Origin: a virus
Taxonomy: Duplodnaviria; Heunggongvirae; Uroviricota; Caudoviricetes
Reading direction: 5' to 3' (one strand)
Virus record (IMG/VR): IMGVR_UViG_2850796239_000011
Span: 29,227-93,226 of that record
Length of the DNA stretch: 64,000 nucleotides
In this document: positions 1,475-47,344 of the stretch, piece by piece
How the letters are laid out: each line of letters begins with the position of its first letter
Position numbering within the stretch: position 1 is the stretch's first letter
Translations under genes and position numbers: made by a program
Notes under the pieces: generated by a model
What the model saw: only the letters and a program-made list of their open reading frames with translations
What the model was told of the DNA's origin: nothing
Database searches by the model: none

Positions 1475-2862
1475 AAGAAACGCTCCATCTTACTGCTGTC
1501 AGTTCGTTTATTACTGTATCTGCGCGGATTGCCGGGCTTCATGGGAGTGGAAAGCACCCGTGCACTTTCCTGGTCCACAGGCAGAAAATGTCCGTTATAA
1601 AAACGCCGGTAAATCGTTCCCAGAGAACCGTTACGTTGTTTCGTGATATTGATTTCTGCGATGCCCCTGGCCTGCGTATCCGGGTTGTACACTTCATCCC
1701 TGTAAAGCATCAGAATGATGTCTGCATCCGCCTCTATTTCTCCGGAATTTTTCAGGTCTGAGTTCATGGGACGTTTATTGGGTCTGGACTCCACACCGCG
1801 GGAGAGCTGGCTCAGCGCAATCAACGGAAAACCACCGGATTTTGCCAGGCCTTTAAGCCCCTTTGAGATTTCACCCACGGCAAGGTCATGACGCCCCGTG
1901 GTTCGGGTTTTTATCAGCCCGAGATAATCAACCACCACCAGCGCCGTTTCCGGATGTTTAATCAGATGGTGTTTCGTTGTTGCGCATATCTCATCAATGG
2001 TCAGGTTCGCCTGGTCCACCATCCAGATATTGCGCCCGGTCATCCGCCCCACCCCTTGTGAGAAACGCGCCCAGTCTTCATCTTCAAAGTGAGCCACAGA
2101 TTTCAGGCGTGATACTGGCATCCCTCCAGCCGCAGACACCATACGTTCACCAATCTGGATGTTCGCCATCTCCATGGTGAACAGAAGCACACCATGCCCC
2201 TGCTCAGTCACCTTGTCGATGATGTCCAGCGCAAGTTCGGTTTTCCCCATCGAAGGACGAGCCGCAATAAATACCAGGTCGCCGGGCTCCATGCCGCCTG
2301 TTTTTGCGTCCAGTTCATCAATACCGGTCATCAACGTCCTGGATTTCTCCAGTCCCTGATTCCGGCATTCAACACGCTCAACCACCTCCGGAAGCACATC
2401 ATCAATATGTACCGACTGAATAACGCCCTTTTCCGTCGACAATGAGGCCATCATGTTCTGTGCATCCTTAAGAGCATCTTCAGCTGCTTCACAGGTATGC
2501 GCATCGCGTAATTTCTGTAATGCCTCGTTCAGTGTTTTTTCTGCATCGCGCAGTGCGGCATTGCGCCGCAACGCTGCAACATAGTGCTCCAGTGAAGACT
2601 TCACCCAGGTTTTACGCCCGGTATCAGTAATCACCGGGGCAAGTTCTGGCATCTCATTGCACAACAGCACAGGATCAATCACGCCGGACACACGGGCCTG
2701 TCTGCAGATGCCTGTGTAGATATCCCGGTACGGTCGTACAGAAAAAACGTCCGCCGGTAGTGTGGCCAGAATATCCATCACTTCAGGATCTGCTCCGCGC
2801 AGAAAGAACGCGCCGATGACAGCGCCTTCAAGGTCATCGTTACGCCATACTGGAGTTGTCAT
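1471..2862 (-). CDS. Replicative DNA helicase, DnaB family (phage-encoded)
   Basis: 463 aa; Walker A PSMGKTE, DnaB C-terminal motifs SQLSRxxExR and ITKQRNG. Confidence 0.9.
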   Translation of the reverse strand: MTTPVWRNDDLEGAVIGAFFLRGADPEVMDILATLPADVFSVRPYRDIYTGICRQARVSGVIDPVLLCNEMPELAPVITDTGRKTWVKSSLEHYVAALRRNAALRDAEKTLNEALQKLRDAHTCEAAEDALKDAQNMMASLSTEKGVIQSVHIDDVLPEVVERVECRNQGLEKSRTLMTGIDELDAKTGGMEPGDLVFIAARPSMGKTELALDIIDKVTEQGHGVLLFTMEMANIQIGERMVSAAGGMPVSRLKSVAHFEDEDWARFSQGVGRMTGRNIWMVDQANLTIDEICATTKHHLIKHPETALVVVDYLGLIKTRTTGRHDLAVGEISKGLKGLAKSGGFPLIALSQLSRGVESRPNKRPMNSDLKNSGEIEADADIILMLYRDEVYNPDTQARGIAEINITKQRNGSLGTIYRRFYNGHFLPVDQESARVLSTPMKPGNPRRYSNKRTDSSKMERFF

Positions 2863-5436: not shown

Positions 5437-5733
5437 GATGGCAGCCTCTTTGGTGATTTTTAATAACTCACCACCAAAGCTTCTCACGGCAATAGGTGGT
5501 GAGACGTACAGGGGTGAGAAACCGGTCACCAAAGAACCCGGCCCAACCGAAGTTGGCCCTGCACGCCCCACCATAATTTGGGCGTAATGCTGCTCATGAC
5601 ACAAAAAAACCGCAAGAGCGCGGTTGTGCGCTTTGGTGAATTCCGGGTTCTCACGCCCGGCACCCGCTTTATAAGGTGCGGAGACAGTGTAACGTCCCGA
5701 AATTGCAGAATCAATATCAAAATGTTGTAGCTG

Positions 5734-5772
5734 TGGACAACGCGAAGCCTTGTTGTTATTGTTTACAACAAG
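5734..5772 (+). promoter_or_regulatory. Putative promoter (-35 TGGACA, -10 TATTGT) overlapped by inverted repeat CTTGTTGT-N8-ACAACAAG
   Basis: Read from sequence; 17-bp spacer; palindrome 5749..5772 overlaps the -10; lies 20-60 bp upstream of 5791 start. Confidence 0.4.
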
Positions 5773-5790
5773 AACCAGAGGAAGCTTTAA

Positions 5791-6078
5791 ATGCCATCCA
5801 GACTGTATAAACAGTTCATCCGTCATCTCGGTGAATCTGAATACATACGAATCCGCATATGGGAAGTGGAGCCTGCTGTATTGGGTAGCCAGCACAACTA
5901 CAAATACAGCATGGCTTATGTCGTTGATGGCATGTGTGTGATGCGTTACGACAACGAACGGGGTAAAGGCGATCACAAACACATTGGTAGTCAGGAAGTC
6001 AGCACCAGCTTTGTCACCATTGAACAACTGCTCGCTGATTTTCTGGCTGACGTTGAATCCATCCGCAGAGGTATCTGA
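5791..6078 (+). CDS. TumE-like toxin candidate (DUF6516-like), 95 aa
   Basis: Motif YKYS...RYDNERGKGDHKH recalled as the DUF6516/TumE signature; good RBS GAGGAAG; stop followed by partner start one base later. Confidence 0.55.
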   Translation: MPSRLYKQFIRHLGESEYIRIRIWEVEPAVLGSQHNYKYSMAYVVDGMCVMRYDNERGKGDHKHIGSQEVSTSFVTIEQLLADFLADVESIRRGI

Positions 6079-6656: not shown

Positions 6657-7370
6657 TCACACCTGCCAGCCAGTAGCCTGAAACAGGCCCATTCTCGGGT
6701 GATACCAGCGGGTACCACGCTGAACGGCACCACACATCATGTGATGAAACGCCTTCAGAAACGGTTCCACAGCAACAATTTCACGACGTGCCAGTAATCC
6801 ATCTGGCGTCAAAAATTCATGAGTGTCTGTCGGGATGTTGTATGCATTTACAAGCGTGCGACATTTCGCATCTGACATACCGGTTTTTGCTTTCAGCTGG
6901 CGATATCCGGCATAGCCCTCACGAATGGTACCCTTTTTGATTTGCTCAACTGTTTCGGCAACATGGCTGACTTTTTCTTCCACCTGAGTGATCCGTTTCT
7001 GCTGGCGAACGGCTTCAAGAGCCATCGCGGCAACCATTTCGATTTCGCTCATTGGCTTACGGATCTGTTCTTCCAGTTCGCGCCAGCGATCTACCAGGCG
7101 AGCAGTGAATTCAGGACAGAGCTGTGCGACGACAATGATACTGTCGCGCTTACCTTGTTCTCCTTCAAACAGGTAATGCTCATATTGAACTTTAAAACCT
7201 AAGTTATTGATTCTTTCGGAAACCTCAATTTGAGGAGACCGGACAACGCCACCTTTGGCTAATGTTTCAATAGTGCGTTTCACATTGTCATGACGCTTAC
7301 CCACCAGTTCTGCGATCTCAACGCTGGTCATGGATGCTTTGTCGTTAAAAATTGCGGTGTTCACTGCCAT
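6657..7370 (-). CDS. Phage antirepressor (Rha/KilAC-type), 237 aa
   Basis: N-terminal block matches paralogue 44350..45018; start reassigned to ATG at 7370 with RBS TAAGGAG. Confidence 0.8.
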   Translation of the reverse strand: MAVNTAIFNDKASMTSVEIAELVGKRHDNVKRTIETLAKGGVVRSPQIEVSERINNLGFKVQYEHYLFEGEQGKRDSIIVVAQLCPEFTARLVDRWRELEEQIRKPMSEIEMVAAMALEAVRQQKRITQVEEKVSHVAETVEQIKKGTIREGYAGYRQLKAKTGMSDAKCRTLVNAYNIPTDTHEFLTPDGLLARREIVAVEPFLKAFHHMMCGAVQRGTRWYHPRMGLFQATGWQV

Positions 7371-7504
7371 CTCCTTACGGATAAATTCTTTTAAGATTCC
7401 GCACATTCGTACTTGTTGGTGCCGAACCTTCCTTCAGTTATCCTTTTGATCCCTATAAACAAAAGAACCAAAGGAGGTTCGACATGAAAGTTCAGGCCGT
7501 TGGT

Positions 7505-10480: not shown

Positions 10481-10567
10481 TGGCTAATTTATCCCCTGTA
10501 TCTGTTGTGCACGAAAAAGTGCAGTGAGGTGTACTGGCAATAGCGGACACTACCATTTGTTCTTTTT

Positions 10568-11386
10568 TTAAGCAGCCATCTGATGATATTTTTCCCTGAA
10601 GGCTGCCGGGGAGATATTCCCCAGACGAGAGTGACGACGCTGACGATTGTAGAAAATCTCAATGTATTCCCGTATTACTGAGATGGCTTCATCCCGGTTA
10701 TTAAAACGATAGTGGCTCAGGCTCTCATTTTTCAGCGTTCCCCAGAAGCTTTCCATCGGAGCGTTGTCGTAACAGTTACCTTTACGCGACATTGATGTTT
10801 TCAGACCAGACTGCTCCTGTATGACCCGGTAATCGTATGCGCAGTACTGTGAACCTCGATCAGAGTGGTGGATTAGCCCGGCAGGTGGGCGCTGGCTCCT
10901 GAGCGCCATAAACAGGGCTTTACCTGTCAGCTCTTTTGTCATGCGCTCTCCCATGGCGTAGCCGACAATTTCGCACGTATAAACATCTTTGATGCCAGCG
11001 AGGTACAACCATCCCTCCTGTGTGGCAACATACGTCAGGTCCGCCACCCAGACCTGATTTGGTGCTGTAGGAGCGAACGTCTGGTTCAGCAGATTTGGCG
11101 CAACTGGCAGATTGTGGTTCGGGTTCGTAGTCGCTCTGAACTTGCGTTTCTGCTTACAGCGTAGCCTTAGCTCCTTACGAAGACGTGCCAGTCGGTCACG
11201 ACCAACGATGATGCCATTCTCTGCCAGCTCCGTCTGGAGCCGCCGGGTTCCATATGTTTCGCGAGTGCGGATATGTGCCACCTTAATCTCCAGTTTTAGC
11301 CGCTCATCACTTTGTTTTCTGTCTGAGGGTTCATGCTGTACCCAGTTGTAATAACCGCTCCTGGATACACCAAATACCTGACACAT
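10568..11386 (-). CDS. IS600 transposase OrfB (DDE domain)
   Basis: 272 aa, IS3-family catalytic core. Confidence 0.9.
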   Translation of the reverse strand: MCQVFGVSRSGYYNWVQHEPSDRKQSDERLKLEIKVAHIRTRETYGTRRLQTELAENGIIVGRDRLARLRKELRLRCKQKRKFRATTNPNHNLPVAPNLLNQTFAPTAPNQVWVADLTYVATQEGWLYLAGIKDVYTCEIVGYAMGERMTKELTGKALFMALRSQRPPAGLIHHSDRGSQYCAYDYRVIQEQSGLKTSMSRKGNCYDNAPMESFWGTLKNESLSHYRFNNRDEAISVIREYIEIFYNRQRRHSRLGNISPAAFREKYHQMAA

Positions 11387-11421
11387 CGCTTCAATGGGAA
11401 ATTGTTGTCGCCATTGTTCGA

Positions 11422-11724
11422 TTAACGCGTATTTTTCAGCGACTCCTGTGCAAAATACGCTGTTGCTTTTTTTAATATATCTCGCTCAAGGCGAGCTTCA
11501 TTTAACGCCTTACGCAGTTGCAGAATTTCAGATTCCAGTTCAGCCACCGTGCGGGAACCAGGAGTACCGAGCCCTTTTCTGGCGGCGGTAACCCATTGTC
11601 CTAAAGTGCCTTCAGGAAGGGATAATCGGGAAGCGCCTTCACTGATCGAAAGTTGATTTTCAAGAACCGTTCTGACAGCTTCGGCTTTGAACTCTTTAGA
11701 GTAACGTTGGGTTTTTCTGCTCAT
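11422..11724 (-). CDS. IS600 OrfA (HTH)
   Basis: 100 aa, MSRKTQRYSKEFKAEAV..., leucine zipper. Confidence 0.9.
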   Translation of the reverse strand: MSRKTQRYSKEFKAEAVRTVLENQLSISEGASRLSLPEGTLGQWVTAARKGLGTPGSRTVAELESEILQLRKALNEARLERDILKKATAYFAQESLKNTR

Positions 11725-12296
11725 TATTAGCTCCTTCTGATGCCATTCTATTTCAGGAAGGAGTGTCCGTTAAACTCAGGCTACCTCACAGATCGTTATG
11801 ACAATTGAAAATGGCCAGGTAACAGATGTCTGCAAAGTCCGCGATGGAGAGCTGATTGCCAGCATGGATACATTCATACGGCTGGCAGAAAGAGCGGGGT
11901 ATCAGATAACAGCACCTGCTCAGGAGGAAACCAGTGACATTAACAGCAACACGAATTCCTGAGTGGGTCCACCAGCAGGCGTTGCTGGTCCTGCGGCGGT
12001 ACAGATGCCGACGTATATTCCCGCATCGGATACAGCGCAACGGATATCTCAGTCTGAAGGTTAACCGTCGCTGGCGGCTGTTATCGAAAGACGACGGCCG
12101 GAACTGGGAAGTAATGAGTCATGAACGTTATTCGGGGGAAATAAAGAAATGATCGACAACCGCACCGCCAGCGCCATTGACCAGGCATTACAGAAACATG
12201 ATACACCCGTCGGCCCGTTATTTTTTGTAACACGCCACGGAAGAACAAAAAAAATGCCTCACCCGAAAAACGGCAATTCGTTACCTGGCATTCTTT

Positions 12297-14965: not shown

Positions 14966-15295
14966 ATGCAGATGAACACCCAGAATACTCAACCGCAAAT
15001 AATGAACTATGACCCGAATCTGACGTCATGCGGACGCATGGCAAAACAAACCGTTCGATTAACTTTCGGACTATGGGAATACCGCGAAACATTCGAAGTT
15101 ACTGTCGGCGGCAATCTGACCGGACTGGATGTTATCAGTTGCGCTATTGAAAGCCTGTACGCAACGCTGCCTTATGAAGAAGTCGAGGATGAGCGCACAG
15201 GGGAAACAGATATCATGGCCACCATTAATATTGGCGAACTGATATGTCAGGATGAAGACCTGTCCGGAGAGCTCTGGCTTGCCGGGATGCTTTGA
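14966..15295 (+). CDS. Hypothetical protein, 3' end interrupted by IS600
   Basis: Stop codon is the first TGA of the IS600 end; frame continues after the IS to ~16608. Confidence 0.45.
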   Translation: MQMNTQNTQPQIMNYDPNLTSCGRMAKQTVRLTFGLWEYRETFEVTVGGNLTGLDVISCAIESLYATLPYEEVEDERTGETDIMATINIGELICQDEDLSGELWLAGML

Positions 15296-15356
15296 GGTAG
15301 CCTGAGTTTAACGGACACTCCTTCCTGAAATAGAATGGCATCAGAAGGAGCTAATA

Positions 15357-15659
15357 ATGAGCAGAAAAACCCAACGTTACTCTAAAGAGTTCAAAGCCGA
15401 AGCTGTCAGAACGGTTCTTGAAAATTAACTTTCGATCAGTGAAGGCGCTTCCCGATTATCCCTTCCTGAAGGCACTTTAGGACAATGGGTTACCGCCGCC
15501 AGAAAAGGGCTCGGTACTCCTGGTTCCCGCACGGTGGCTGAACTGGAATCTGAAATTCTGCAACTGCGTAAGGCGTTAAATGAAGCTCGCCTTGAGCGAG
15601 ATATATTAAAAAAAGCAACAGCGTATTTTGCACAGGAGTCGCTGAAAAATACGCGTTAA
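15357..15659 (+). pseudogene. IS600 orfA with nonsense codon (Gln24 to stop)
   Basis: GAA AAT TAA at 15420..15428 versus CAA in copies 1 and 3. Confidence 0.8.
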
Positions 15660-15694
15660 TCGAACAATGGCGACAACAATTTCCCATTGAAGCG

Positions 15695-16513
15695 ATGTGT
15701 CAGGTATTTGGTGTATCCAGGAGCGGTTATTACAACTGGGTACAGCATGAACCCTCAGACAGAAAACAAAGTGATGAGCGGCTAAAACTGGAGATTAAGG
15801 TGGCACATATCCGCACTCGCGAAACATATGGAACCCGGCGGCTCCAGACGGAGCTGGCAGAGAATGGCATCATCGTTGGTCGTGACCGACTGGCACGTCT
15901 TCGTAAGGAGCTAAGGCTACGCTGTAAGCAGAAACGCAAGTTCAGAGCGACTACGAACTCGAACCACAATCTGCCAGTTGCGCCAAATCTGCTGAACCAG
16001 ACGTTCGCTCCTACAGCACCAAATCAGGTCTGGGTGGCGGACCTGACGTATGTTGCCACACAGGAGGGATGGTTGTACCTCGCTGGCATCAAAGATGTTT
16101 ATACGTGCGAAATTGTCGGCTACGCCATGGGAGAGCGCATGACAAAAGAGCTGACAGGTAAAGCCCTGTTTATGGCGCTCAGGAGCCAGCGCCCACCTGC
16201 CGGGCTAATCCACCACTCTGATCGAGGTTCACAGTACTGCGCATACGATTACCGGGTCATACAGGAGCAGTTTGGTCTGAAAACATCAATGTCGCGTAAA
16301 GGTAACTGTTACGACAACGCTCCGATGGAAAGCTTCTGGGGAACGCTGAAAAATGAGAGCCTGAGCCACTATCGTTTTAATAACCGGGATGAAGCCATCT
16401 CAGTAATACGGGAATACATTGAGATTTTCTACAATCGTCAGCGTCGTCACTCTCGTCTGGGGAATATCTCCCCGGCAGCCTTCAGGGAAAAATATCATCA
16501 GATGGCTGCTTAA
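15695..16513 (+). CDS. IS600 transposase OrfB
   Basis: 272 aa, near-identical to other copies. Confidence 0.9.
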   Translation: MCQVFGVSRSGYYNWVQHEPSDRKQSDERLKLEIKVAHIRTRETYGTRRLQTELAENGIIVGRDRLARLRKELRLRCKQKRKFRATTNSNHNLPVAPNLLNQTFAPTAPNQVWVADLTYVATQEGWLYLAGIKDVYTCEIVGYAMGERMTKELTGKALFMALRSQRPPAGLIHHSDRGSQYCAYDYRVIQEQFGLKTSMSRKGNCYDNAPMESFWGTLKNESLSHYRFNNRDEAISVIREYIEIFYNRQRRHSRLGNISPAAFREKYHQMAA

Positions 16514-16641
16514 AAAAAGAACAAATGGTAGTGTCCGCTATTGCCAGTACACCTCACTTATCTCAGCAGAAATTATCAGTATTGAACCCGCTACAAACAT
16601 ACGGCTCTGAAGTTCTCACTATTCAGAGAGCAGGAGAAAAA

Positions 16642-22886: not shown

Positions 22887-24373
22887 CCTGTTACCCCGCT
22901 GGAATAAACCGACACAAGCGCCGAATTCGTGATACGCCGACGTGCGTCATCGGTAATACCCTTCACATTGTCCGACGTTGTGGTGACATTCAGTGTCCCG
23001 ATATGCGTGGTTTCCGTTACGGTGGACTGCGATACAGGCGCAGGATGGCGCGACCGTATGGCCATTGCCGCACCCGGATAAGGCAGGTTCGCCAGCACCC
23101 GCGGAATATAGTTGCGGGTCTCCTCCGGAGCAGCAGCCAGTCCCTTACGCTGAACATTTCCCTCTCCCCAGTTATATGCCGCCAGAGCCTTAGCCAGATC
23201 GCCATGAAAAAAACGTATCAGGCCACCAAGTTTTCTCGCGGCGGCATCAGCGGCTTTTTCGGGATCAAAGGCATCGTTCCCCTCAGACCAAATTCACTGG
23301 CCGTCTTCGGCATGAACTGAAACAGTCCCATCGCACCAGCAGGTGAGACGGCAAACTGATTACCACGGGATTCGGTGATCGCAACGCTGCGCAGCAGTCC
23401 GGGCGGCAGGTTATATTTTTCCTCCAGTTGAGACAGTTTCGGTTGCAGCCAGCCTAACAGGGCTTCCCCGGTCTTCGTCGGTCGCTGGCGGTTTTGCATG
23501 GCATTACCGAGTTTTTCCTGCGTCGCACGCATACCCTGTAGCCAGGATTCACCGAAGGCTGCTTCCCTCCCGGTTGCCTGAGAAGCCTGAGTATCCAGCA
23601 TGCCCTGCTGCCATACTGTGGGTGATTGTGCCCGGGTGATGTTGCCAGGCTTTTCTCCGGCATCCAGTTTTGTCTGATACGTCTCCATCTCTTTCTTATT
23701 GAAAAAGAAAGTCCCGTCTGAAGCCCAGAAAAAACCATGTGAATCCAGCCAGTCCTTATTTTCCCTGCCAACAATGGATGTCAGTAATCCGTCAACAACC
23801 GGGTAAAGCGCCGTTATCGCAAAAAGAAGGCCTCCGGGGCCACTGAGGGCTTTTGTCAGCCCCCCGCACCCATGACGCCACTTTCAGCCCGATCAGCGTA
23901 ATAATGGCATTCTGCCAGCCCCCCAGTTCTCCGGCAGCCTTATTCGCCAGGGAGGCCACTGACTCAACGTCATTCAGAAATGTGGTGATAAACCTGTTCA
24001 CTTCCTCCGGATGTTGCTGCATCCAGTCACCGAGTGTCTCCAGCCAGTGGCTGAGCTTCAGCGCGTACGGCATCAACGCGGTGCTAATCGTCATCCCGAT
24101 GCCGGACCAGGTCTGATCGAGCTCAACAAGCTCTTTTCGTAGCTTACGGGCCAGCGCTATACGCCCCGGCGTAACCTGCGAACGGGAAGTAAATTCGTCC
24201 ACATCTTTCAGCGCATGACCGGAGCCAAGAAACTGCTGTCCGGCATAACTGAAGCCCAGCGCGTTGCCGTAGGCAGTTTGTTCGGACTTTGTCAGTCGCG
24301 GAAAAATAACCGCCAGCTTGCGCATGATGGCTTCAGTGCTGTCAGTATTTAAATCAACACTAGGCTGTGTCCC

Positions 24374-24889
24374 TTAATTACGTAAGCGTTGATAAAAGAG
24401 TCGGATGCAGCCCAGTTTCACCATCGCCAGGTAATTTCTCGCCGTTTTGTCGTAACGCGTGGCGATGCGGCGATATTCTTTCAGCCGCCCAAAGCACCGT
24501 TCAACGACATTACGATTGCGGTACGCATCACGATCAAGCTGTGCACGTCCATCCGATGCCATTTTCTCATTTGACTTTCGGGGGATTACTGCCTTTATAC
24601 CGTTATTTTTCAGCTCGTTGCGCAATGCGCGCCCTGAATACGCTTTATCAGCCAGTACCGCATGTCCACGGCGTTTCATGCTGCCGTTCTGACGCTGAAC
24701 GCCAATCCCGTCCAGAAGTCGTTGCGCGAACTGGCTTTCATGAGCTTGTCCGGGGCTTAGCACGATATTTAACGGGAGGCCACTTCCGTCTGTTGCCAGA
24801 TGGATTTTGGTGCCAAAACCGCCGCGAGAGCGACCCAGCCCATTATCTCCGTCGATATCGGGATGTTTTTTTGAGCACCGGCGGCACAT
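24374..24889 (-). CDS. IS5-family transposase OrfB (DDE part)
   Basis: Downstream overlapping frame; intact in this copy. Confidence 0.7.
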   Translation of the reverse strand: MCRRCSKKHPDIDGDNGLGRSRGGFGTKIHLATDGSGLPLNIVLSPGQAHESQFAQRLLDGIGVQRQNGSMKRRGHAVLADKAYSGRALRNELKNNGIKAVIPRKSNEKMASDGRAQLDRDAYRNRNVVERCFGRLKEYRRIATRYDKTARNYLAMVKLGCIRLFYQRLRN

Positions 24890-25218
24890 TTCAGCGCCCG
24901 GATATTACTGCCATCCAGCGCGGTGGCAGACCAGTCAATAAAGCCGTTTGCATCAAGTAGCGAAAGCAACCTGTTGAAAATAATATTAATCACGCCTGAC
25001 TTTGACCATCGGTTAAAGCGGTTATAAACAGTTTTCCATGACCCATATCGTTCGGGTAAATCGCGCCATGGTGCACCGGAACATAACACCCAGAACATGC
25101 CATTGATGATTTTACGGTGCTCAGCCCATGGGCGTCCGGCCCGTGGTGTGGCGGGTTCAGGAGGTAACAGGGGCTTGATGATGGTCCATGCCTCATCGGG
25201 AAGGTCGTAGCGAGCCAT
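24769..25218 (-). CDS. IS5-family transposase OrfA
   Basis: LPDEAW...GRP...WRDLPERYGSWKTVYNRFNRW motif. Confidence 0.8.
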   Translation of the reverse strand: MARYDLPDEAWTIIKPLLPPEPATPRAGRPWAEHRKIINGMFWVLCSGAPWRDLPERYGSWKTVYNRFNRWSKSGVINIIFNRLLSLLDANGFIDWSATALDGSNIRALKCAAGAQKNIPISTEIMGWVALAAVLAPKSIWQQTEVASR

Positions 25219-26029
25219 AGTTCAATATGTTGTGTAAACAGACAGTTACTATAGCTCAGATGATTAAGGGACACAGCCTAATGCCCGCCCTGGCTGCAAC
25301 CTGAAACAAATCCTGTAACACAGGATCAAAGGACCTTCCGGCTCTGAAGGCCGCTTTTGCATTTGCAAGCCGGGAAAATGCCCCAGACATTTCCCCTTCA
25401 TCAACATTATTTGCCCGCGCAGCCCGTAACCATCCGTCCAGATTTCTGGCCTTCATGCCAAAAGCATCAGATTCCACGGACAGACGGTTCAGATCACGGG
25501 CAAAACCTGTTACCAGGTTCTTCAGCCCCCCCAGCGTCAGACTGACACCCGCAAGAGCCAGAATCTCGCTACGGATCCCTGAAAAAAAACGGGACGCCCG
25601 TTTCCCGGCATCTTCCATTCGACGGGCCGTTTTATCAGCATCTTTTCCGGTTTTTTCCAGTGATTCACTGGTTTTCTTCTGTCCCTGACTGAATGTGTCA
25701 GCGACACCTTCCATCACCGTCGTGAGCCGGTTAAGGGCAGCATGTACTGCCTGTTCCCCGGCAGTAAAGTCCCTGTCATCAATCCCGAGGGACAGAACAA
25801 GCTCATCAAGTACCTGCGCCATTTCTGTTCTCCTGTATCACCTGTTCGTTATGGGCATCCACATGAATTATTTCCAGCAGATCCCATAAGTCCTGCACAC
25901 CAAGGACAGAATCCAGTTCAGCTTTTGAAGCCTTACCGGAGGAGATAACGGTCGCAATGGTACGGGGAACATTAACGTAATCCACCACCCCGAACGGTCT
26001 GTCGGGGTCGAGATAACGCGGGGGGATAT

Positions 26030-28891: not shown

Positions 28892-29241
28892 ACAATAACC
28901 CTCGTCCAGTCAGGCCAGATTTCCGGTACCTCAATCACCAGCCACGTTTCATCGCCAATAACAAATTTATCGCCTCCCTGTTGCCGGGCACGGTTAAGCC
29001 CGCACCAGTTACCATCGGTATACAATGTGGCGAAAACTCCCTGCTGGTTAAGATTATCAAGATGACGTAAATCAGCCTGGGTGACAGCCTGCTTTTGCAC
29101 CCTGACGGAAACCGGATCTTCATACTCAGGTACGCGGGAATAATCTGCCTGCTGTGTACTCCCGCGGGAACGATAAACCAGCGCGTCTGTAAAGGGATTT
29201 ACCCGACGTACTGCGCCGGAAACAATACCGTGAAAGTTCAT
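28876..29241 (-). CDS. Hypothetical head-tail protein
   Basis: 121 aa. Confidence 0.45.
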   Translation of the reverse strand: MNFHGIVSGAVRRVNPFTDALVYRSRGSTQQADYSRVPEYEDPVSVRVQKQAVTQADLRHLDNLNQQGVFATLYTDGNWCGLNRARQQGGDKFVIGDETWLVIEVPEIWPDWTRVIVCLQV

Positions 29242-37359: not shown

Positions 37360-37491
37360 ACTTAGCCCATCATTTTTCTATACACCTCTGCGGCCTGCTC
37401 AGGCGTTAATTTGGTAATTTCTGTTCTGACTGGTCCTCCGTCAGCGCCTGAGGTGTACTGGCAATAGCGGACACTACCATTTGTTCTTTTT

Positions 37492-38310
37492 TTAAGCAGC
37501 CATCTGATGATATTTTTCCCTGAAGGCTGCCGGGGAGATATTCCCCAGACGAGAGTGACGACGCTGACGATTGTAGAAAATCTCAATGTATTCCCGTATT
37601 ACTGAGATGGCTTCATCCCGGTTATTAAAACGATAGTGGCTCAGGCTCTCATTTTTCAGCGTTCCCCAGAAGCTTTCCATCGGAGCGTTGTCGTAACAGT
37701 TACCTTTACGCGACATTGATGTTTTCAGACCAAACTGCTCCTGTATGACCCGGTAATCGTATGCGCAGTACTGTGAACCTCGATCAGAGTGGTGGATTAG
37801 CCCGGCAGGTGGGCGCTGGCTCCTGAGCGCCATAAACAGGGCTTTACCTGTCAGCTCTTTTGTCATGCGCTCTCCCATGGCGTAGCCGACAATTTCGCAC
37901 GTATAAACATCTTTGATGCCAGCGAGGTACAACCATCCCTCCTGTGTGGCAACATACGTCAGGTCCGCCACCCAGACCTGATTTGGTGCTGTAGGAGCGA
38001 ACGTCTGGTTCAGCAGATTTGGCGCAACTGGCAGATTGTGGTTCGGGTTCGTAGTCGCTCTGAACTTGCGTTTCTGCTTACAGCGTAGCCTTAGCTCCTT
38101 ACGAAGACGTGCCAGTCGGTCACGACCAACGATGATGCCATTCTCTGCCAGCTCCGTCTGGAGCCGCCGGGTTCCATATGTTTCGCGAGTGCGGATATGT
38201 GCCACCTTAATCTCCAGTTTTAGCCGCTCATCACTTTGTTTTCTGTCTGAGGGTTCATGCTGTACCCAGTTGTAATAACCGCTCCTGGATACACCAAATA
38301 CCTGACACAT
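37492..38310 (-). CDS. IS600 transposase OrfB
   Basis: 272 aa. Confidence 0.9.
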   Translation of the reverse strand: MCQVFGVSRSGYYNWVQHEPSDRKQSDERLKLEIKVAHIRTRETYGTRRLQTELAENGIIVGRDRLARLRKELRLRCKQKRKFRATTNPNHNLPVAPNLLNQTFAPTAPNQVWVADLTYVATQEGWLYLAGIKDVYTCEIVGYAMGERMTKELTGKALFMALRSQRPPAGLIHHSDRGSQYCAYDYRVIQEQFGLKTSMSRKGNCYDNAPMESFWGTLKNESLSHYRFNNRDEAISVIREYIEIFYNRQRRHSRLGNISPAAFREKYHQMAA

Positions 38311-38345
38311 CGCTTCAATGGGAAATTGTTGTCGCCATTGTTCGA

Positions 38346-38648
38346 TTAACGCGTATTTTTCAGCGACTCCTGTGCAAAATACGCTGTTGCTTTTTTTAAT
38401 ATATCTCGCTCAAGGCGAGCTTCATTTAACGCCTTACGCAGTTGCAGAATTTCAGATTCCAGTTCAGCCACCGTGCGGGAACCAGGAGTACCGAGCCCTT
38501 TTCTGGCGGCGGTAACCCATTGTCCTAAAGTGCCTTCAGGAAGGGATAATCGGGAAGCGCCTTCACTGATCGAAAGTTGATTTTCAAGAACCGTTCTGAC
38601 AGCTTCGGCTTTGAACTCTTTAGAGTAACGTTGGGTTTTTCTGCTCAT
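38346..38648 (-). CDS. IS600 OrfA
   Basis: 100 aa, intact. Confidence 0.9.
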   Translation of the reverse strand: MSRKTQRYSKEFKAEAVRTVLENQLSISEGASRLSLPEGTLGQWVTAARKGLGTPGSRTVAELESEILQLRKALNEARLERDILKKATAYFAQESLKNTR

Positions 38649-39284
38649 TATTAGCTCCTTCTGATGCCATTCTATTTCAGGAAGGAGTGTCCGTTAAACT
38701 CAGGCTACCTCAGCCAGTCACTTCATTTTTGACGTTGTCTTTAAACGCCTGAACAGAAACATGACGCCCAAGCAACTCAAGGTTTTTAACCTTATCAGGC
38801 CATTTGATTTTCTTCAGAAGTGCGGCGCTATCTGCGGATACCATCTCCACGACATCCATTCCTGATAGCGTTGTGCGCCATACCTTAGGCCAGTCTTTAA
38901 TGGGCTTTAGCTCACCGTTTTGCAGGAGAATGTCGAGCACATCCATCTGGTCGATTTCAACCAATCTACGAAGAACATAGGCGGCATCTATACCCGTCTG
39001 CTCAACGCGGGCGGATTTAAGTTCAGCAACGAATTTTTGAACATTAACATTTGCTAATAATCGAGATGCCTGCTCATTGGCGGTCTTCTCGCTGTAGCCC
39101 GCCCTGATAGCTGCCTGTGTGCCGTTCAGATCTTTCAGGTACTCACGGGCAAACAGCTCTTGTTTGTCGGTGAGCTTTGCCATTATTTGTGCTCCGTTTA
39201 TCCGTTAAAAGGGATATCAGTTAAGTTATCCCGTGTAGGGTATAAGCCATTATCAAGCCCACCCGTAGATGGGCTTTGTAATGG

Positions 39285-40709: not shown

Positions 40710-41193
40710 TGCTGCCCCCACAAACAGACTTCACGCTCAATCTCACGACGGGTCATCAGCCCTTTCCATTGCTTACCGCCAGCATATGTCCAGCGACGTA
40801 GCTGGTCACATGCGCCTTTGATATCGCCCTGGTTTATTTTGCGAAGAAGCGTCGATGTTCTGAAATTGCCAGCGCCCACGTTGTAAACGAACGAGTAAAG
40901 AGCGCCGCGCGTTGTTTCCGGTATATCGACTTTGATGTACGGGTTAATTTGTCTGGCGACAGTGGCAAGGTCTTTATTCAGGAGAGCTTTGCATTCTGCT
41001 TCGGTATACGTTTTACCAGGCATGATGTCTTTTCCGGTGTGTCCGTGACATACAGTCCATACACCAATGATATCTTTGTATGGTATGTAGCTGACACCTT
41101 CCAGACCATCGTTACCACCTGGGCCAGTGATTAGGCTGTGTCCCTTAATCATCTGAGCTATAGTAACTGTCTGTTTACACAACATATTGAACT

Positions 41194-41643
41194 ATGGCTC
41201 GCTACGACCTTCCCGATGAGGCATGGACCATCATCAAGCCCCTGTTACCTCCTGAACCCGCCACACCACGGGCCGGACGCCCATGGGCTGAGCACCGTAA
41301 AATCATCAATGGCATGTTCTGGGTGTTATGTTCCGGTGCACCATGGCGCGATTTACCCGAACGATATGGGTCATGGAAAACTGTTTATAACCGCTTTAAC
41401 CGATGGTCAAAGTCAGGCGTGATTAATATTATTTTCAACAGGTTGCTTTCGCTACTTGATGCAAACGGCTTTATTGACTGGTCTGCCACCGCGCTGGATG
41501 GCAGTAATATCCGGGCGCTGAAATGTGCCGCCGGTGCTCAAAAAAACATCCCGATATCGACGGAGATAATGGGCTGGGTCGCTCTCGCGGCGGTTTTGGC
41601 ACCAAAATCCATCTGGCAACAGACGGAAGTGGCCTCCCGTTAA
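41194..41643 (+). CDS. IS5-family transposase OrfA
   Basis: Identical to copy A OrfA. Confidence 0.8.
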   Translation: MARYDLPDEAWTIIKPLLPPEPATPRAGRPWAEHRKIINGMFWVLCSGAPWRDLPERYGSWKTVYNRFNRWSKSGVINIIFNRLLSLLDANGFIDWSATALDGSNIRALKCAAGAQKNIPISTEIMGWVALAAVLAPKSIWQQTEVASR

Positions 41644-42037
41644 ATATCGTGCTAAGCCCCGGACAAGCTCATGAAAGCCAGTTCGCGCAACGACTTCTGG
41701 ACGGGATTGGCGTTCAGCGTCAGAACGGCAGCATGAAACGCCGTGGACATGCGGTACTGGCTGATAAAGCGTATTCAGGGCGCGCATTGCGCAACGAGCT
41801 GAAAAATAACGGTATAAAGGCAGTAATCCCCGAAAGTCAAATGAGAAAATGGCATCGGATGGACGTGCACAGCTTGATCGTGATGCGTACCGCAATCGTA
41901 ATGTCGTTGAACGGTGCTTTGGGCGGCTGAAAGAATATCGCCGCATCGCCACGCGTTACGACAAAACGGCGAGAAATTACCTGGCGATGGTGAAACTGGG
42001 CTGCATCCGACTCTTTTATCAACGCTTACGTAATTAA
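41523..42037 (+). pseudogene. IS5-family transposase OrfB with frameshift
   Basis: CCCC at 41828..41831 versus five in copy A; frame diverges after KAVIP. Confidence 0.7.
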
Positions 42038-42119
42038 GGGACACAGCCTAACACAGATGCTATAGCAACAGCCCCGCCACCAATAGCAACTGCAACAGCC
42101 TTGCGTAATGATGGCGACA

Positions 42120-44349: not shown

Positions 44350-45018
44350 CTATTGGCCACGCCCGGTGATTTTTGTGGTGAACGATATCTGTATTCCGTG
44401 ATTTGTGTTGACTGCTGTTTCTTTCACTGTGAAATAGCCGCGATCCATATATTCCTGCATTGGCACATTGCGCCGGGAACCTGAAGCAATAAGGATTTTG
44501 TGATCGCGCATCCACGCAAACAGTTTGTTTGGACCAATTCCAACAACCTTTGCAAAGTTTCCAATCAAAATTCCGCTGGCCTCGCTAACGCGATCGGCAA
44601 ACTCAACTTTAGGTGCTGCGAGAGCAAGCTGTTTCTCCAGTTCAGCCTTCTGGTCTTCAAGGTCGGCCGCAAGGCGCAATGCCTCAGAAAAGGTTTGTGG
44701 GATTTTCGCGGTTGCCCCTTCAAGCTCTCGCCAACGGTCAACAAGACGAGCGGTGAATTCCGGCGACAACTGGGCAACGACAATAATGCTGTCGCGCTTA
44801 CCTTGTTCGCCTTCGAAGACGTAATGCTCGTACTGAACATTGAACCCTAAGTTATTGATTCTTTCGGAAACCTCAAATTGAGGATGCCGGATAACACCAT
44901 TTTTAGCCAGCGTTTCGATGGTACGTTTCACATTGTCATGACGCTTACCCACCAACTCAGCGATTTCAATGCTGGTCATTTTGATGGCGTTGCTATTTAT
45001 CAGCTCGTTCATTGTCAT
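44350..45018 (-). CDS. Phage antirepressor (KilAC domain)
   Basis: Paralogue of 6657..7370. Confidence 0.8.
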   Translation of the reverse strand: MTMNELINSNAIKMTSIEIAELVGKRHDNVKRTIETLAKNGVIRHPQFEVSERINNLGFNVQYEHYVFEGEQGKRDSIIVVAQLSPEFTARLVDRWRELEGATAKIPQTFSEALRLAADLEDQKAELEKQLALAAPKVEFADRVSEASGILIGNFAKVVGIGPNKLFAWMRDHKILIASGSRRNVPMQEYMDRGYFTVKETAVNTNHGIQISFTTKITGRGQ

Positions 45019-45086: not shown

Positions 45087-45773
45087 TCAGTAGTGATGTA
45101 GTGAAGGAGGTAATTCTTTGTTCTTAAGTCTTACCCATGCAGAAAGATTCGTTGGTCCGTCTGGCTCATTAATATCAACATCTCGTGTGTGATTGATTAA
45201 AACGTCTCTCGCCATTCCGATAACATACGAGAACTCATGACCGTAGTCGTGGCATCTGCCGGAATAGTTAGACTGAATTTGTCTTAGCGCCGGATACAGT
45301 TCGCGGAATAATGCCTGTGAGCGGTTGGCATAATCCCACAACCATACCAGACTGTTTGCATCTTTTGCAGAAAGCTCGCTGGTTTTCTTCTCGTGATGAC
45401 CTGCGCTTTTCGAAGTCTGGCTGAAATAGCAGTCTTCCAGTTTTTCGAACACGTCCCATGCCTGATCGGTTTCGAGCATCTTCGCGTGACGAGCTGCGCC
45501 GCGTTCTGTCCAGAGGATGAGGGAGCGGGTTTTTGGAGAAATTTTCACCTCATTTTGCGACTCGTTTAAAACTAGTCGCAAATTTTTGAGCTCATCACCA
45601 ACAGCTTTAAAGAAGTGTTTTCCCTCAATAAATCGAGATTTATTTTCATGGTGATTCTGCTGTATACGGATTGCTTCTGTTCCGTAAAGGCGGGCGAGTA
45701 ACTCAGTTGTGATTACAGGAATCTGGTTATAAGTGACAGGGGAAAGGTTTTTGACAGCAACTTGAACAGTCAT
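45087..45773 (-). CDS. Roi-like DNA-binding/antirepressor-family protein
   Basis: 228 aa; ORF6N/Bro-N-like N-terminus by recall. Confidence 0.55.
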
Positions 45774-45939
45774 AACGACCTCGCGTTTCGATAATTTTTA
45801 CCTCACCACCTTCAGGTTCCAATCATCGGGTGGCGAACTGTGCAGGGTTGGAACTACCGGTCGAAACATCCGGCGCACCTTTCGGTGCCCCCACACAGCC
45901 CGCCATAAATCGCGAATGTGACTGTGCTTAGCGCATAAA

Positions 45940-45965
45940 AAAACCGCCAGCGCGGTATGCACCGT
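45940..45965 (-). terminator. Putative weak intrinsic terminator (tR-like) in nin region
   Basis: Short GC stem followed by U7 on minus strand. Confidence 0.3.
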
Positions 45966-46091
45966 TTCGATATCCGGGGTTCCAATCCCGACGCCAGATT
46001 TTGCTGGCGCGTGAGGAATATAGCCCCGGATATGTGTTGTCGTCAACTACAGGCCTTGAATGCATATAACGATTTTGTTATGTTGATACCT

Positions 46092-46421
46092 ATGAACTAC
46101 ACTATCGAATACTACAGTGAAGATGTAAGGCTGGAAGTCGATCGGCTTCCATTGAGTATGCGTGCCCGATACCAACATCTCGTTGAACGTATGAAGATAT
46201 ATGGCAGCAATCTCGGAGAACCTCACACCAGCGCCTTTGGTGACGGACTTTTCGAACTCAGAATTAAAGGCAACGATGGGATCGCGCGTGTTTTTTACTG
46301 CACTCTGACAGGGAAACGCATCATCATGCTGCATAGTTTTGTAAAGAAAACGCAGAAAACACCGCCAGCCGAACGCAAGAAAGCTGAAACCAGAATGAAG
46401 GAGGTTAAGCATGACTGGTAA
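46092..46421 (+). CDS. Type II toxin, RelE/HigB-like (Gp49 family)
   Basis: ARVFY...IIMLHSFVKKTQKTP motif; 11-bp overlap with downstream antitoxin. Confidence 0.7.
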   Translation: MNYTIEYYSEDVRLEVDRLPLSMRARYQHLVERMKIYGSNLGEPHTSAFGDGLFELRIKGNDGIARVFYCTLTGKRIIMLHSFVKKTQKTPPAERKKAETRMKEVKHDW

Positions 46422-46719
46422 ACGCACTCTCCCCACCATGACACACGACGAAATGGCAGCCAAATGGATGGAAGACCCGGCTTTTAAAGCAGAATACGAC
46501 GCTATCGCTGACGAATTCGCACTGCTTGATGAAATGCTGGCAGCACGCAAAGAAGCTGGCTTAACTCAGGCTGAAGTTGCCGAGCGAATGGGAACAAAAG
46601 CGACCGCGATCACCAGAATGGAAAGTAATCTCGCATCAGGTATCAGCGGCCCATCATTTGCCACCCTAAAAAAATTCGCCCGCGCTACTGGAAAAAAACT
46701 CCAGATCCGCTTCGTTTAA
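46411..46719 (+). CDS. Type II antitoxin, HTH-XRE (HigA-like)
   Basis: HTH GLTQAEVAERMGTKATAITRME...; operon partner. Confidence 0.7.
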   Translation: MTGKRTLPTMTHDEMAAKWMEDPAFKAEYDAIADEFALLDEMLAARKEAGLTQAEVAERMGTKATAITRMESNLASGISGPSFATLKKFARATGKKLQIRFV

Positions 46720-46760
46720 CCACACCGCGCCGTCATTCTGGCGGCGCACCGGATAAATAG

Positions 46761-46937
46761 TCATTTCCTCGCACGATGTCTTAGCCACCGGATATCCCAC
46801 AGGTGAGCCGTGTAGTTGAAGGTTTTTACGTCAGATTCTTTTGGGATTGGCTTGCATTTATTTCTGGAGCGTTTCGTTGGAAGGTATTTGCAGTTTTCAC
46901 AGATGATGTCGGTGAAACTTCGTCGCTGTCGCCTCAT
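46761..46937 (-). CDS. ninE: NinE
   Basis: Hand translation [27 protein letters not shown]... matches recalled lambda NinE; ATGA overlap with NinB. Confidence 0.75.
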
Positions 46938-47344
46938 TCATACCTCCTGTCGGTAAATCTGACACCCTGACCAATAGCCCAGGCTGTCGTGTACTCAATC
47001 AGACTTGCCATACGCTTCACACTCATCTGCGCGCTGCTTTCGCGAATGTTGACGAATTCGCCTTCAAGGCCGCGCAAAACATCAGCTTCCTGTTTTGTTG
47101 CCACTGCATGACCGCTAATCAACAAAACCTTCCATTGTTCCGGTTTTAACCATTTGCCGCACCATTGAACCTGACGAGCGATATCCGCCAGCATCGCGTG
47201 AAATTTTGCGTTCTGGTCAAGATTTCGCTTGTAGTCAGTAATGCGGATTGTGACTGGCTTGTCTTTATCGAGTGGTGTTGAGAGGATGGCGTTGATTGCG
47301 GCTTGCTGTTGTTGCTTACTTCGGAGGAAGATTGTTTGCTTCAT
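46934..47344 (-). CDS. ninB: NinB recombination protein
   Basis: 136 aa; resembles lambda NinB. Confidence 0.8.

Follow-up and report, generated by a model that had tools for sequence, protein, structure and literature searches.

A predicted Gp49-type, HigBA-like toxin-antitoxin operon carried as a cargo cassette beside the isrK/C4 antirepressor module of a lambdoid prophage

Introduction

In toxin-antitoxin (TA) modules of the Gp49 type, a toxin gene that comes first and overlaps the antitoxin gene is the rule (PMC5906591). A stabilising effect has been reported for the Tad-Ata systems of N15 gp49 and its homologues in SXT (Dziewit 2007, as cited in PMC2701414 and PMC5906591). In Acinetobacter baumannii, HigA2 represses its own promoter with HigB2 as co-repressor, and the toxin has RNase activity (PMC5906591). 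For the toxin of the Mycobacterium tuberculosis toxin-antitoxin-chaperone (TAC) system, HigB-TAC, mutagenesis showed that residues E66, R68, R77, F93, K95, Q98 and K99 matter (PMC9098466). Among TA systems of prophages, paaA2-parE2 was proposed to be addictive and to shield the immunity region of CP-933P from recombinational replacement (PMC8630535). Here we analysed a Gp49/XRE gene pair at positions 46092-46719 of a 64,000-nt stretch of viral DNA (Caudoviricetes; IMG/VR record IMGVR_UViG_2850796239_000011, positions 29,227 to 93,226), which is called the window below. The pair is very probably a self-contained type II TA operon of the Gp49 (Tad-Ata, or "reverse" HigBA) kind, carried as a cargo cassette of a lambdoid prophage.

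Family and predicted structure of the two proteins

The pair comprises the following two genes.

46092..46421, plus strand: toxin gene, 109 aa (MNYTIEYY...), Gp49/Tad-type and HigB-like, RelE superfamily, predicted ribosome-dependent mRNA endonuclease
46411..46719, plus strand: antitoxin gene, 102 aa, N-terminal extension of ~40 aa and C-terminal helix-turn-helix (HTH) domain of the XRE type (residues 44-98), HigA/Ata-like

The two open reading frames (ORFs) overlap by 11 bp (46411-46421, ATGACTGGTAA), both on the plus strand, and the coordinates, lengths, strand and overlap given in the original prediction were all correct according to the ORF list and the sequence. The toxin matched the Pfam family Gp49 (PF05973) with 90.5 bits (cut-off 23.9, E 7.4e-26) over profile positions 3-90 of 90, and the antitoxin matched HTH_3 with 43.5 bits (cut-off 23, E 3.4e-11); these scores exclude a chance ORF for both genes. 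The toxin also matched PHROG 2523 (E 2.6e-45). It had been predicted to be RelE/HigB-like, and the Pfam check proposed with that prediction returned Gp49, a RelE-superfamily match above the curated threshold.

The nearest solved structure to the toxin by sequence was HigB of the Streptococcus pneumoniae HigBA complex (6AF3/6AF4). About 2,900 homologues of the toxin were found, and a family alignment and profile were built from 30 of them. In a Protein Data Bank (PDB) search with this profile, HigB of 6AF3 was matched with E 2.9e-8 and M. tuberculosis HigB1 (7NBU/7AWK) with E ~5e-3. The best PDB match of the antitoxin was 6AF3_B, the HigA antitoxin (E 1e-3), so that toxin and antitoxin best matched the two cognate chains of a single solved complex, S. 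pneumoniae HigB-HigA. Together with the HTH_3 match, this cognate HigA agrees with the HTH-XRE antitoxin that had been predicted.

The AlphaFold2 model of the toxin (pLDDT 90.7, pTM 0.84) showed a strand at residues 4-7, helices at residues 10-17 and 21-37, four strands and a helix at residues 92-108, i.e., a beta-alpha-alpha-beta4 RelE core with a long C-terminal helix. In a Foldseek search, the model aligned best with 6AF4, 7NBU and 7AWK (TMq 0.75-0.78, probability 1.00). HigB/HigB1 were followed by YafQ, RelE and YoeB, with ParE2 at rank 13, and the top matches were all ribosome-dependent RNases. In the profile alignment, E55, R57, R66, F83, K85, Q88 and K89 of the toxin aligned with E66, R68, R77, F93, K95, Q98 and K99 of HigB-TAC, respectively, and thus seven of the nine residues suggested to act in catalysis in HigB-TAC had equivalents in the toxin. 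E55, R57, R66, F83, K85 and K89 were invariant in the 30-homologue alignment, whereas Q88 is present here but not invariant in the family. K59 and K86 were also invariant across phyla, and the equivalents of E66, R68, R73, F90 and K92 of S. pneumoniae HigB were present. The claim that the pair belongs to a known type II family is therefore well founded, in view of the Gp49 profile, the predicted HigB/HigB1-like fold, the mostly kept catalytic residues and the cognate HigA as the best PDB match of the antitoxin.

Gp49 was the sole Pfam family matched by the toxin at E <= 0.01, and the canonical HigB family (PF05015) gave no match. "HigB-like" is best read as a functional label and not as family membership, in agreement with PMC5906591. 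A TAC system was considered and rejected, since the third gene, for a SecB-like chaperone, and the ChAD tail of the antitoxin are both absent: the HTH domain ends at residue 98 of the 102-aa antitoxin, and the gene that follows is the convergent ninE. A search with PADLOC 2.0 gave no full defence-system match for the pair. In this search, 51 residues of the toxin matched the C-terminal domain of NsnC, a candidate defence protein (E 8e-10), and weak HTH matches (capH among others) were also obtained. Because PF05015 was not matched, no chaperone gene is present and no full PADLOC system was found, we would place the pair in the Gp49/Tad-Ata branch of the "reverse" HigBA-like modules (PMC2701414, PMC5906591). 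The pair has already been annotated, as a RelE/ParE family toxin and an HTH protein in RefSeq and as HigB/HigA in the record of phage PhiR5_2. It appears to be an intact, uncharacterised member of a well-populated, known TA subfamily and ordinary in kind.

Expression signals and selection

We collected a set of 55 close relatives (toxin at least 72% identical) from IMG/VR, phage and genome records; single loci are cited below by L numbers. In every locus except one, the antitoxin start lay 319 nt past that of the toxin, the exception being the frameshifted locus with +318, and an antitoxin match was found downstream of the toxin in all viral loci but one, down to 40% toxin identity. Both ORFs were intact in 51 of the 55 loci. 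The median pairwise ratio of nonsynonymous to synonymous substitution rates (dN/dS) was 0.04 among 24 toxin alleles and 0.05 among 20 antitoxin alleles, at a dS close to 1. These values point to strong purifying selection on both partners and speak against a decaying relic.

L005 and L122-L133 showed a mosaic breakpoint within the toxin gene when compared with window 46092-46719. Their first ~200 nt were 47-75% identical to the window and the remaining cassette mostly 83-96%, resulting in amino acid identities of 73% for the toxin and 91% for the antitoxin.

Three candidate expression signals of the pair were located.

46056..46084, plus strand: candidate sigma-70 promoter of the pair, read from the sequence, with -35 TTGAAT (46056-61), a 17-nt spacer and -10 TATGTT (46079-84)
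46064..46083, no strand: candidate palindromic operator ATATAAC-N6-GTTATGT over the -10; family consensus ACATAAC-N6-GTTATGT
46399..46404, plus strand: Shine-Dalgarno sequence AGGAGG of the antitoxin, located within the end of the toxin gene, 6 nt 5' of its own ATG

The -10 and the toxin ATG at 46092 are separated by 7 nt in which no Shine-Dalgarno sequence is present. The TTG of the -35, the palindrome including the -10, the spacing and the 7-nt gap, which lacks a Shine-Dalgarno sequence and varies in sequence, followed by the ATG, were conserved in all 32 distinct upstream variants, and the palindrome was the sole invariant block from the -35 to the ATG. Its core, ATAAC-N6-GTTAT, had one exact match in the 64-kb window; no second operator was found by the isrK promoter described below. 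The same arrangement recurred farther away: homologues with 50-67% identity in Methylotenera, Thiomicrospira, Burkholderiales, Acidobacteriota and other taxa were preceded by TAAC-N6-GTTA over a -10 of the TATCAT/TATTAT type, with 6-8 nt left before the start codon. Because it recurs upstream of such distant homologues, the operator-over-promoter layout is a trait of the subfamily, and the palindrome is presumed to be a binding site of HigA or HigBA for autorepression. With a transcription start deduced from the promoter position, the toxin mRNA would be leaderless or nearly so and hence weakly translated, while the antitoxin appears to be well translated and the promoter autorepressed. Weak translation of the toxin and strong translation of the antitoxin would explain how a toxin-first operon attains antitoxin excess, a question raised in PMC5906591. 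The conserved design, i.e., an operator over the -10, a leaderless toxin without a Shine-Dalgarno sequence and a strong Shine-Dalgarno sequence for the antitoxin, is concrete and testable and should be useful to specialists.

The same Met as at 46092 begins homologues of many phyla, the best-scoring of which are typically 109-111 aa long, and the ATG was kept in 30 of the 32 upstream variants. We accepted 46092 as the toxin start because of this shared Met, the conservation of the ATG and the location of the in-frame ATG at 46080 inside the operator/-10. The latter was rejected as a start since it forms part of the conserved -10/operator and reads ATA in one variant (L120). A 154-aa toxin ORF from the ATG at 45957 was also rejected: it would cross the promoter and RNA of isrK on the opposite strand, and homologues begin at the Met of MNYT....

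Neighbouring antirepressor module and cargo slot

The surroundings of the pair contain the following features.

45937-46010, minus strand: isrK small RNA (Rfam, 72.1 bits)
45971-46023, minus strand: c4-a1b1 target region (Rfam, 50.1 bits), overlapping isrK
45826-45910, minus strand: C4 antisense RNA (Rfam, 75.2 bits)
45087..45773, minus strand: antirepressor gene, ORF6N/P22_AR_C, Ant/AnrP-like (PF10543, E 2.6e-20; PF10548, E 2.2e-28; PHROG 377, anti-repressor Ant)
44350-45018: Rha/KilAC (Roi-type) gene, one gene past the antirepressor (Pfam)
46017..46046, minus strand: sigma-70-like promoter of the isrK/C4-antirepressor operon, TTGACG-18-TATATT (promoter scan, 10 of 12 consensus matches)
46727..46747, no strand: GC-rich hairpin of 9 bp (-19.1 kcal/mol, z -2.4) between the convergent higA and ninE stops, right boundary of the cassette
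46761..46937, minus strand: ninE (PF05322, E 2.2e-42), convergent with the antitoxin gene
46934-47344, minus strand: ninB, right of ninE

The scores of isrK, c4-a1b1 and C4 all exceeded the Rfam gathering cut-offs, and together these elements make up the leader of the antirepressor operon. A terminator-like site was found at the end of isrK (45964-45943), the only place where the scan found such sites. The module is of the P1 ImmI / Gifsy-1 IsrK-AnrP type, in which C4 and its a1/b1 targets (isrK) lie 5' of the antirepressor gene; the Gifsy-1 layout of IsrK-AnrP has been described in PMC4825925. In the window, the promoters of isrK and the TA pair stand back-to-back, with their -35 hexamers 9 bp apart.

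The pair had been described as lying antisense in the nin region, between ninE and a Roi-like gene. Its antisense placement is correct: the pair is on the plus strand, ninE and ninB are on the minus strand, and the pair is transcribed against the early-right (nin) operon, as expected of genes expressed in the lysogen. Of the two neighbours, ninE was confirmed by PF05322, but the Roi-like gene is not directly adjacent, as the isrK/C4 RNAs and then the antirepressor gene intervene. "Roi-like" is thus a loose label for the adjacent minus-strand gene, and the isrK/C4 RNAs had not been listed.

The linkage of the pair to C4-type RNAs was scored by Rfam scans and by our own nhmmer profiles. A C4-type RNA module lay divergently upstream of the toxin in 52 of the 55 close relatives, and in most of them isrK was 75-82 nt from the toxin ATG. 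In an Edwardsiella-type lineage, sRNA-Xcc1 was found in place of isrK, at ~325-335 nt. The linkage holds over dS > 1, over intergenic sequences of two unrelated kinds and over two families of RNA, isrK/C4 and sRNA-Xcc1. The 55 loci are not independent and amount to ~10 sequence lineages. The exceptions among the close relatives were POCJ13-type phages. A 53%-identical Gp49/XRE pair, found on the viral contig L136 and with the same upstream sequence in Paraburkholderia tuberum (L021), also has a C4-like RNA divergently upstream, whereas no C4-type RNA was found for 19 of the 21 homologues that are more distant and mostly chromosomal.

Three further observations concern the RNAs near such pairs. 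L097, L098, L099, L101, L107 and L109 carry two tandem isrK-C4 units upstream of the TA genes, ~75/176 and 731/832 nt from the toxin. In L021/L136, the C4-like RNA, detected with the sRNA-Xcc1 model, lies ~215 nt upstream of the toxin and is followed by a Rha-domain gene; P. tuberum is a betaproteobacterium. In L120, a sok antitoxin RNA of the hok/sok type (1935-2085, minus strand; Rfam, 115 bits) lies ~4 kb from the Gp49/XRE pair and represents a second TA system, of type I.

Antisense to the cassette there are long ORFs, of 167 aa in the window, 524 aa in L097 and 558 aa in L136. They were rejected as coding, because a dS of ~1 in the sense frames leaves no space for a conserved overlapping protein. 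The sole Pfam signals of these ORFs (Phage_ASH, pRha) fell on the isrK/C4 and antirepressor part. In L097, the Phage_ASH match of the long minus-strand ORF (5665-5937, minus strand) maps exactly on the isrK and C4 RNA genes. Part of the Phage_ASH family may thus represent translated non-coding RNA, or a translated short ORF that overlaps it.

Comparisons with phages Min27, POCJ13 and PA8 showed shared junctions with swapped or absent content between them, and the pair is therefore best viewed as a cargo unit of ~0.72 kb (~46030-46747) in a variable slot of the lambdoid prophage. The junctions with the three phages placed the left boundary at ~46030-46033, within the spacer of the isrK promoter. 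The Shigella phages POCJ13 and 75/02 Stx (Shiga toxin) share only window ~46029-46747, in another gene context, and the homology with POCJ13 stops at 46747, the end of the GC-rich hairpin. In Min27 and related Stx phages, isrK/C4 and ninE are present, with ~23 bp in place of 46033-46763. The Stx2a phage PA8 shares the left junction (GGATATGTGTTGTCGTCAAC) with the window, and its cargo is closed on the right by the same GC hairpin. This cargo is a different one and consists of a gene for a ParD-like antitoxin, a small lipoprotein-like ORF and an HTH gene of the HigA family other than the one described here. Also in the slot, but without annotation, is a ~70-bp remnant of the 3' end of the higA described here, corresponding to window 46651-46723, which implies that an ancestral HigBA-like cassette was replaced in PA8. 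An identification of the PA8 cargo with the O157 system paaR2-paaA2-parE2 was rejected, as that system sits in the cI/cro region (PMC8630535). At 21 distinct loci with the left junction of PA8 and the window, the cargo was either this HigBA-like pair or of the PA8 type. The slot is thus defined, from the antirepressor promoter to the GC hairpin by ninE, in lambdoid and Stx phages, and TA-like genes are exchanged there.

The cassette is rare: at least 80% of it was found in 31 of 5426 complete Escherichia coli genomes. About 960 E. coli genomes matched a longer query that included isrK/C4, mostly in that part only. The PA8-type cargo (L166, E. coli WG5::PA8, 1843-2920) was likewise present in ~40 further complete E. 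coli genomes, of which many are O157:H7.

Other features of the window

A 1264-bp element is present in three copies of at least 99.6% identity (10525-11788, 15293-16556 in inverted orientation, and 37449-38712). It contains a 272-aa transposase-like ORF and has the appearance of the IS3 family of insertion sequences (IS). One copy lies inside the late region of the prophage, which may thus be defective, and the host seems to be rich in IS elements (Shigella-like or E. coli). A 922-bp inverted repeat of 99.9% identity (24361-25282 and 41130-42050) lies within or between phage regions and could be an inversion substrate or the trace of an inversion. An 82.6% identical repeat (7070-7331 and 44718-44979) links the Rha/KilAC antirepressor gene to a similar gene at 6657-7406, which suggests a second prophage remnant in the window.

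Discussion

We infer toxicity, RNase activity, DNA binding and the transcription start of the pair from its sequence, and propose that it works as follows. In the lysogen, the sigma-70 promoter TTGAAT-17-TATGTT would give a transcript whose 5' end coincides with the toxin ATG or lies no more than 1-2 nt from it. Translation of the toxin from this leaderless mRNA would be poor, and the antitoxin, whose frame overlaps the toxin stop by 11 nt, would be translated from AGGAGG, resulting in antitoxin excess. The antitoxin would neutralise the toxin through its N-terminal extension of ~40 residues, and its HTH-XRE domain would bind ACATAAC-N6-GTTATGT over the -10 and repress the operon, probably together with the toxin as co-repressor. 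If the supply of antitoxin dropped, through loss of the cassette or shut-off of its expression, free toxin would enter the ribosomal A site and cleave mRNA, leading to the arrest of translation and growth. The role most likely served is addiction, in which the cassette would stabilise both itself and its prophage segment beside a regulatory switch. Phage exclusion is a possible additional benefit and does not exclude addiction. The original prediction had likewise pointed to phage exclusion or prophage stabilisation as possible roles.

Some observations weigh against a functional addiction operon. A chromosomal prophage is not lost by segregation as a plasmid is, and classical post-segregational killing is limited to events of excision or deletion. 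The promoter of the pair fits 8 of 12 consensus positions, which is under the threshold, and was not called by the generic promoter scan. The hairpin behind higA was rejected as an intrinsic terminator, as it has no U-tract and was not called by the terminator scan, and termination there is doubtful. We found no paper in the literature that is specific to this pair or that links a TA system to isrK. K58 and N73 of HigB-TAC align with S47 and D62 of the toxin and have no equivalents, and some Gp49 toxins, namely HigB2 and HigB3 of M. tuberculosis, were non-toxic when expressed (PMC9098466). Furthermore, the toxin start ATG has changed to ATA in three relatives (L004, which is phage PhiR5_2, L131 and L132) with the antitoxin intact, which suggests that the toxin is dispensable for the phage, and one relative (L135) has a frameshift in the toxin. 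Occasional loss of the toxin with retention of the antitoxin is thus observed.

The non-toxic Gp49 toxins, the two unconserved HigB-TAC residues and the four relatives with a damaged toxin would also fit a non-toxic or attenuated relic, in which a DNA-binding regulator is accompanied by an inert partner as for HigB2/HigB3. We regard such a relic as improbable. The dN/dS of the toxin is 0.04 over 24 alleles, E55, R57, K59, R66, F83, K85, K86 and K89 are invariant across phyla, and the equivalents of F93 and K99, which are missing in HigB2/HigB3, are present. Moreover, weak translation of the toxin with strong translation of the antitoxin would be needed only for a harmful toxin. Gyrase poisoning of the ParE kind, in place of mRNA interferase activity, is very improbable for the toxin. 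The generic RefSeq name "RelE/ParE family toxin" and the presence of ParE2 among the Foldseek matches would allow it, but ParE2 reached a TMq of 0.44 at its rank of 13, against 0.75-0.78 for HigB/HigB1, and the conserved E/R/R/F/K/Q/K set fits the RNase active site of HigB-TAC. A different question is whether the same TA operon was selected for anti-phage defence, with infection shutting off host transcription or depleting the antitoxin and the RNase then aborting the infection. This role is possible but on the doubtful side. Variable cargo slots of temperate phages often house defence genes, and the cassette lies in such a slot, on the strand expressed in the lysogen; the very low dN/dS indicates that the toxin is kept active, and the partial PADLOC match to the C-terminal domain of NsnC (E 8e-10) points in the same direction. 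A HigB toxin related to the Gp49-like TAC toxin of M. tuberculosis protects E. coli from lambda in HigBAC (bioRxiv 10.1101/2024.02.24.581848). However, phage sensing by HigBAC needs the SecB-like chaperone and the ChAD tail, and here the antitoxin ends just past the HTH domain and is followed by ninE. In addition, no PADLOC system was matched in full, the cassette is rare among complete E. coli genomes (31 of 5426), and no trigger is known. Addiction, in turn, is compatible with a defence role.

The near-obligate adjacency to C4/isrK is the only unusual trait of the pair. It might reflect a conserved divergent functional unit of the pair and the C4/isrK antirepressor operon, in which the antirepressor switch of secondary immunity would be co-regulated or "guarded" by the HTH antitoxin or the TA complex, either through setting the activity of the antirepressor promoter or through killing cells whose region is replaced by recombination; we consider such a unit rather unlikely. 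The stricter form of this coupling, that the HTH protein or complex also controls the back-to-back antirepressor promoter and that the toxin modulates prophage induction, is unlikely. Mnt, which controls ant divergently in P22 immI, would be a model for it. The C4-type module is kept divergently in 52 of the 55 relatives, across ~10 lineages, and recurs at the 53%-identical pair; the -35 hexamers of the two promoters are merely 4-9 bp apart among variants; and the alternative cargo of the slot likewise consists of HTH and antitoxin-like genes. Nevertheless, the antirepressor module clearly works without the TA pair in most phages, given the ~960 E. coli genomes that match the isrK/C4 query and the 31 that carry the cassette. 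The operator core has a single exact copy in the window, and this copy lies clear of the isrK promoter core; the same promoter/operator design is found in the 19 chromosomal homologues without any C4-like RNA, and POCJ13-type phages part the two units. Even without any function, tight physical linkage together with a shared recombination junction could account for the synteny. If the coupling were true, it would tie the TA pair to the decision on prophage induction. As observed here, the pair is one more uncharacterised member of a populated TA subfamily, and its general impact is small.

Comparison with described systems

The closest described systems are Tad-Ata of N15 (gp49/gp48) and its SXT and pAMI2 homologues, in which, as here, a Gp49/DUF891 toxin comes first, followed by an HTH-XRE antitoxin, on a mobile element. 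N15 gp49 was 46% identical to the toxin over residues 15-105. However, N15 is a linear plasmid prophage, for which segregational loss makes addiction straightforward, whereas the pair described here lies in the nin region of an integrated lambdoid prophage, beside an antirepressor module. A. baumannii HigBA2 also has a GP49 toxin first and an HTH antitoxin (PMC5906591). It differs in being plasmid-borne and distant, A. baumannii HigBA having ~20% identity to Tad-type modules (PMC5906591).

S. pneumoniae HigB-HigA (6AF3/6AF4) shares the RelE-like core with a long C-terminal helix and the antitoxin architecture of an N-terminal extension and an HTH domain. However, the identity in the structural alignment is ~20%, the host is Gram-positive, the locus is chromosomal, and the operator and promoter are unrelated. 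The HigB1 TAC toxin of M. tuberculosis (7NBU/7AWK; PMC9098466) has a Gp49-like fold, acts as a ribosome-bound mRNase and has the catalytic set that could be aligned with the toxin. TAC and E. coli HigBAC differ from the pair in their third gene, encoding a SecB-like chaperone, and in the ChAD tail of the antitoxin, neither of which is present here, and K58 and N73 lack conserved counterparts in the toxin. The paaR2-paaA2-parE2 system of prophage CP-933P (PMC8630535) is likewise a TA system beside the regulatory switch of a lambdoid prophage, but it has a ParE2 toxin and three components, and it lies in the cI/cro region instead of on the side of the C4/isrK antirepressor.

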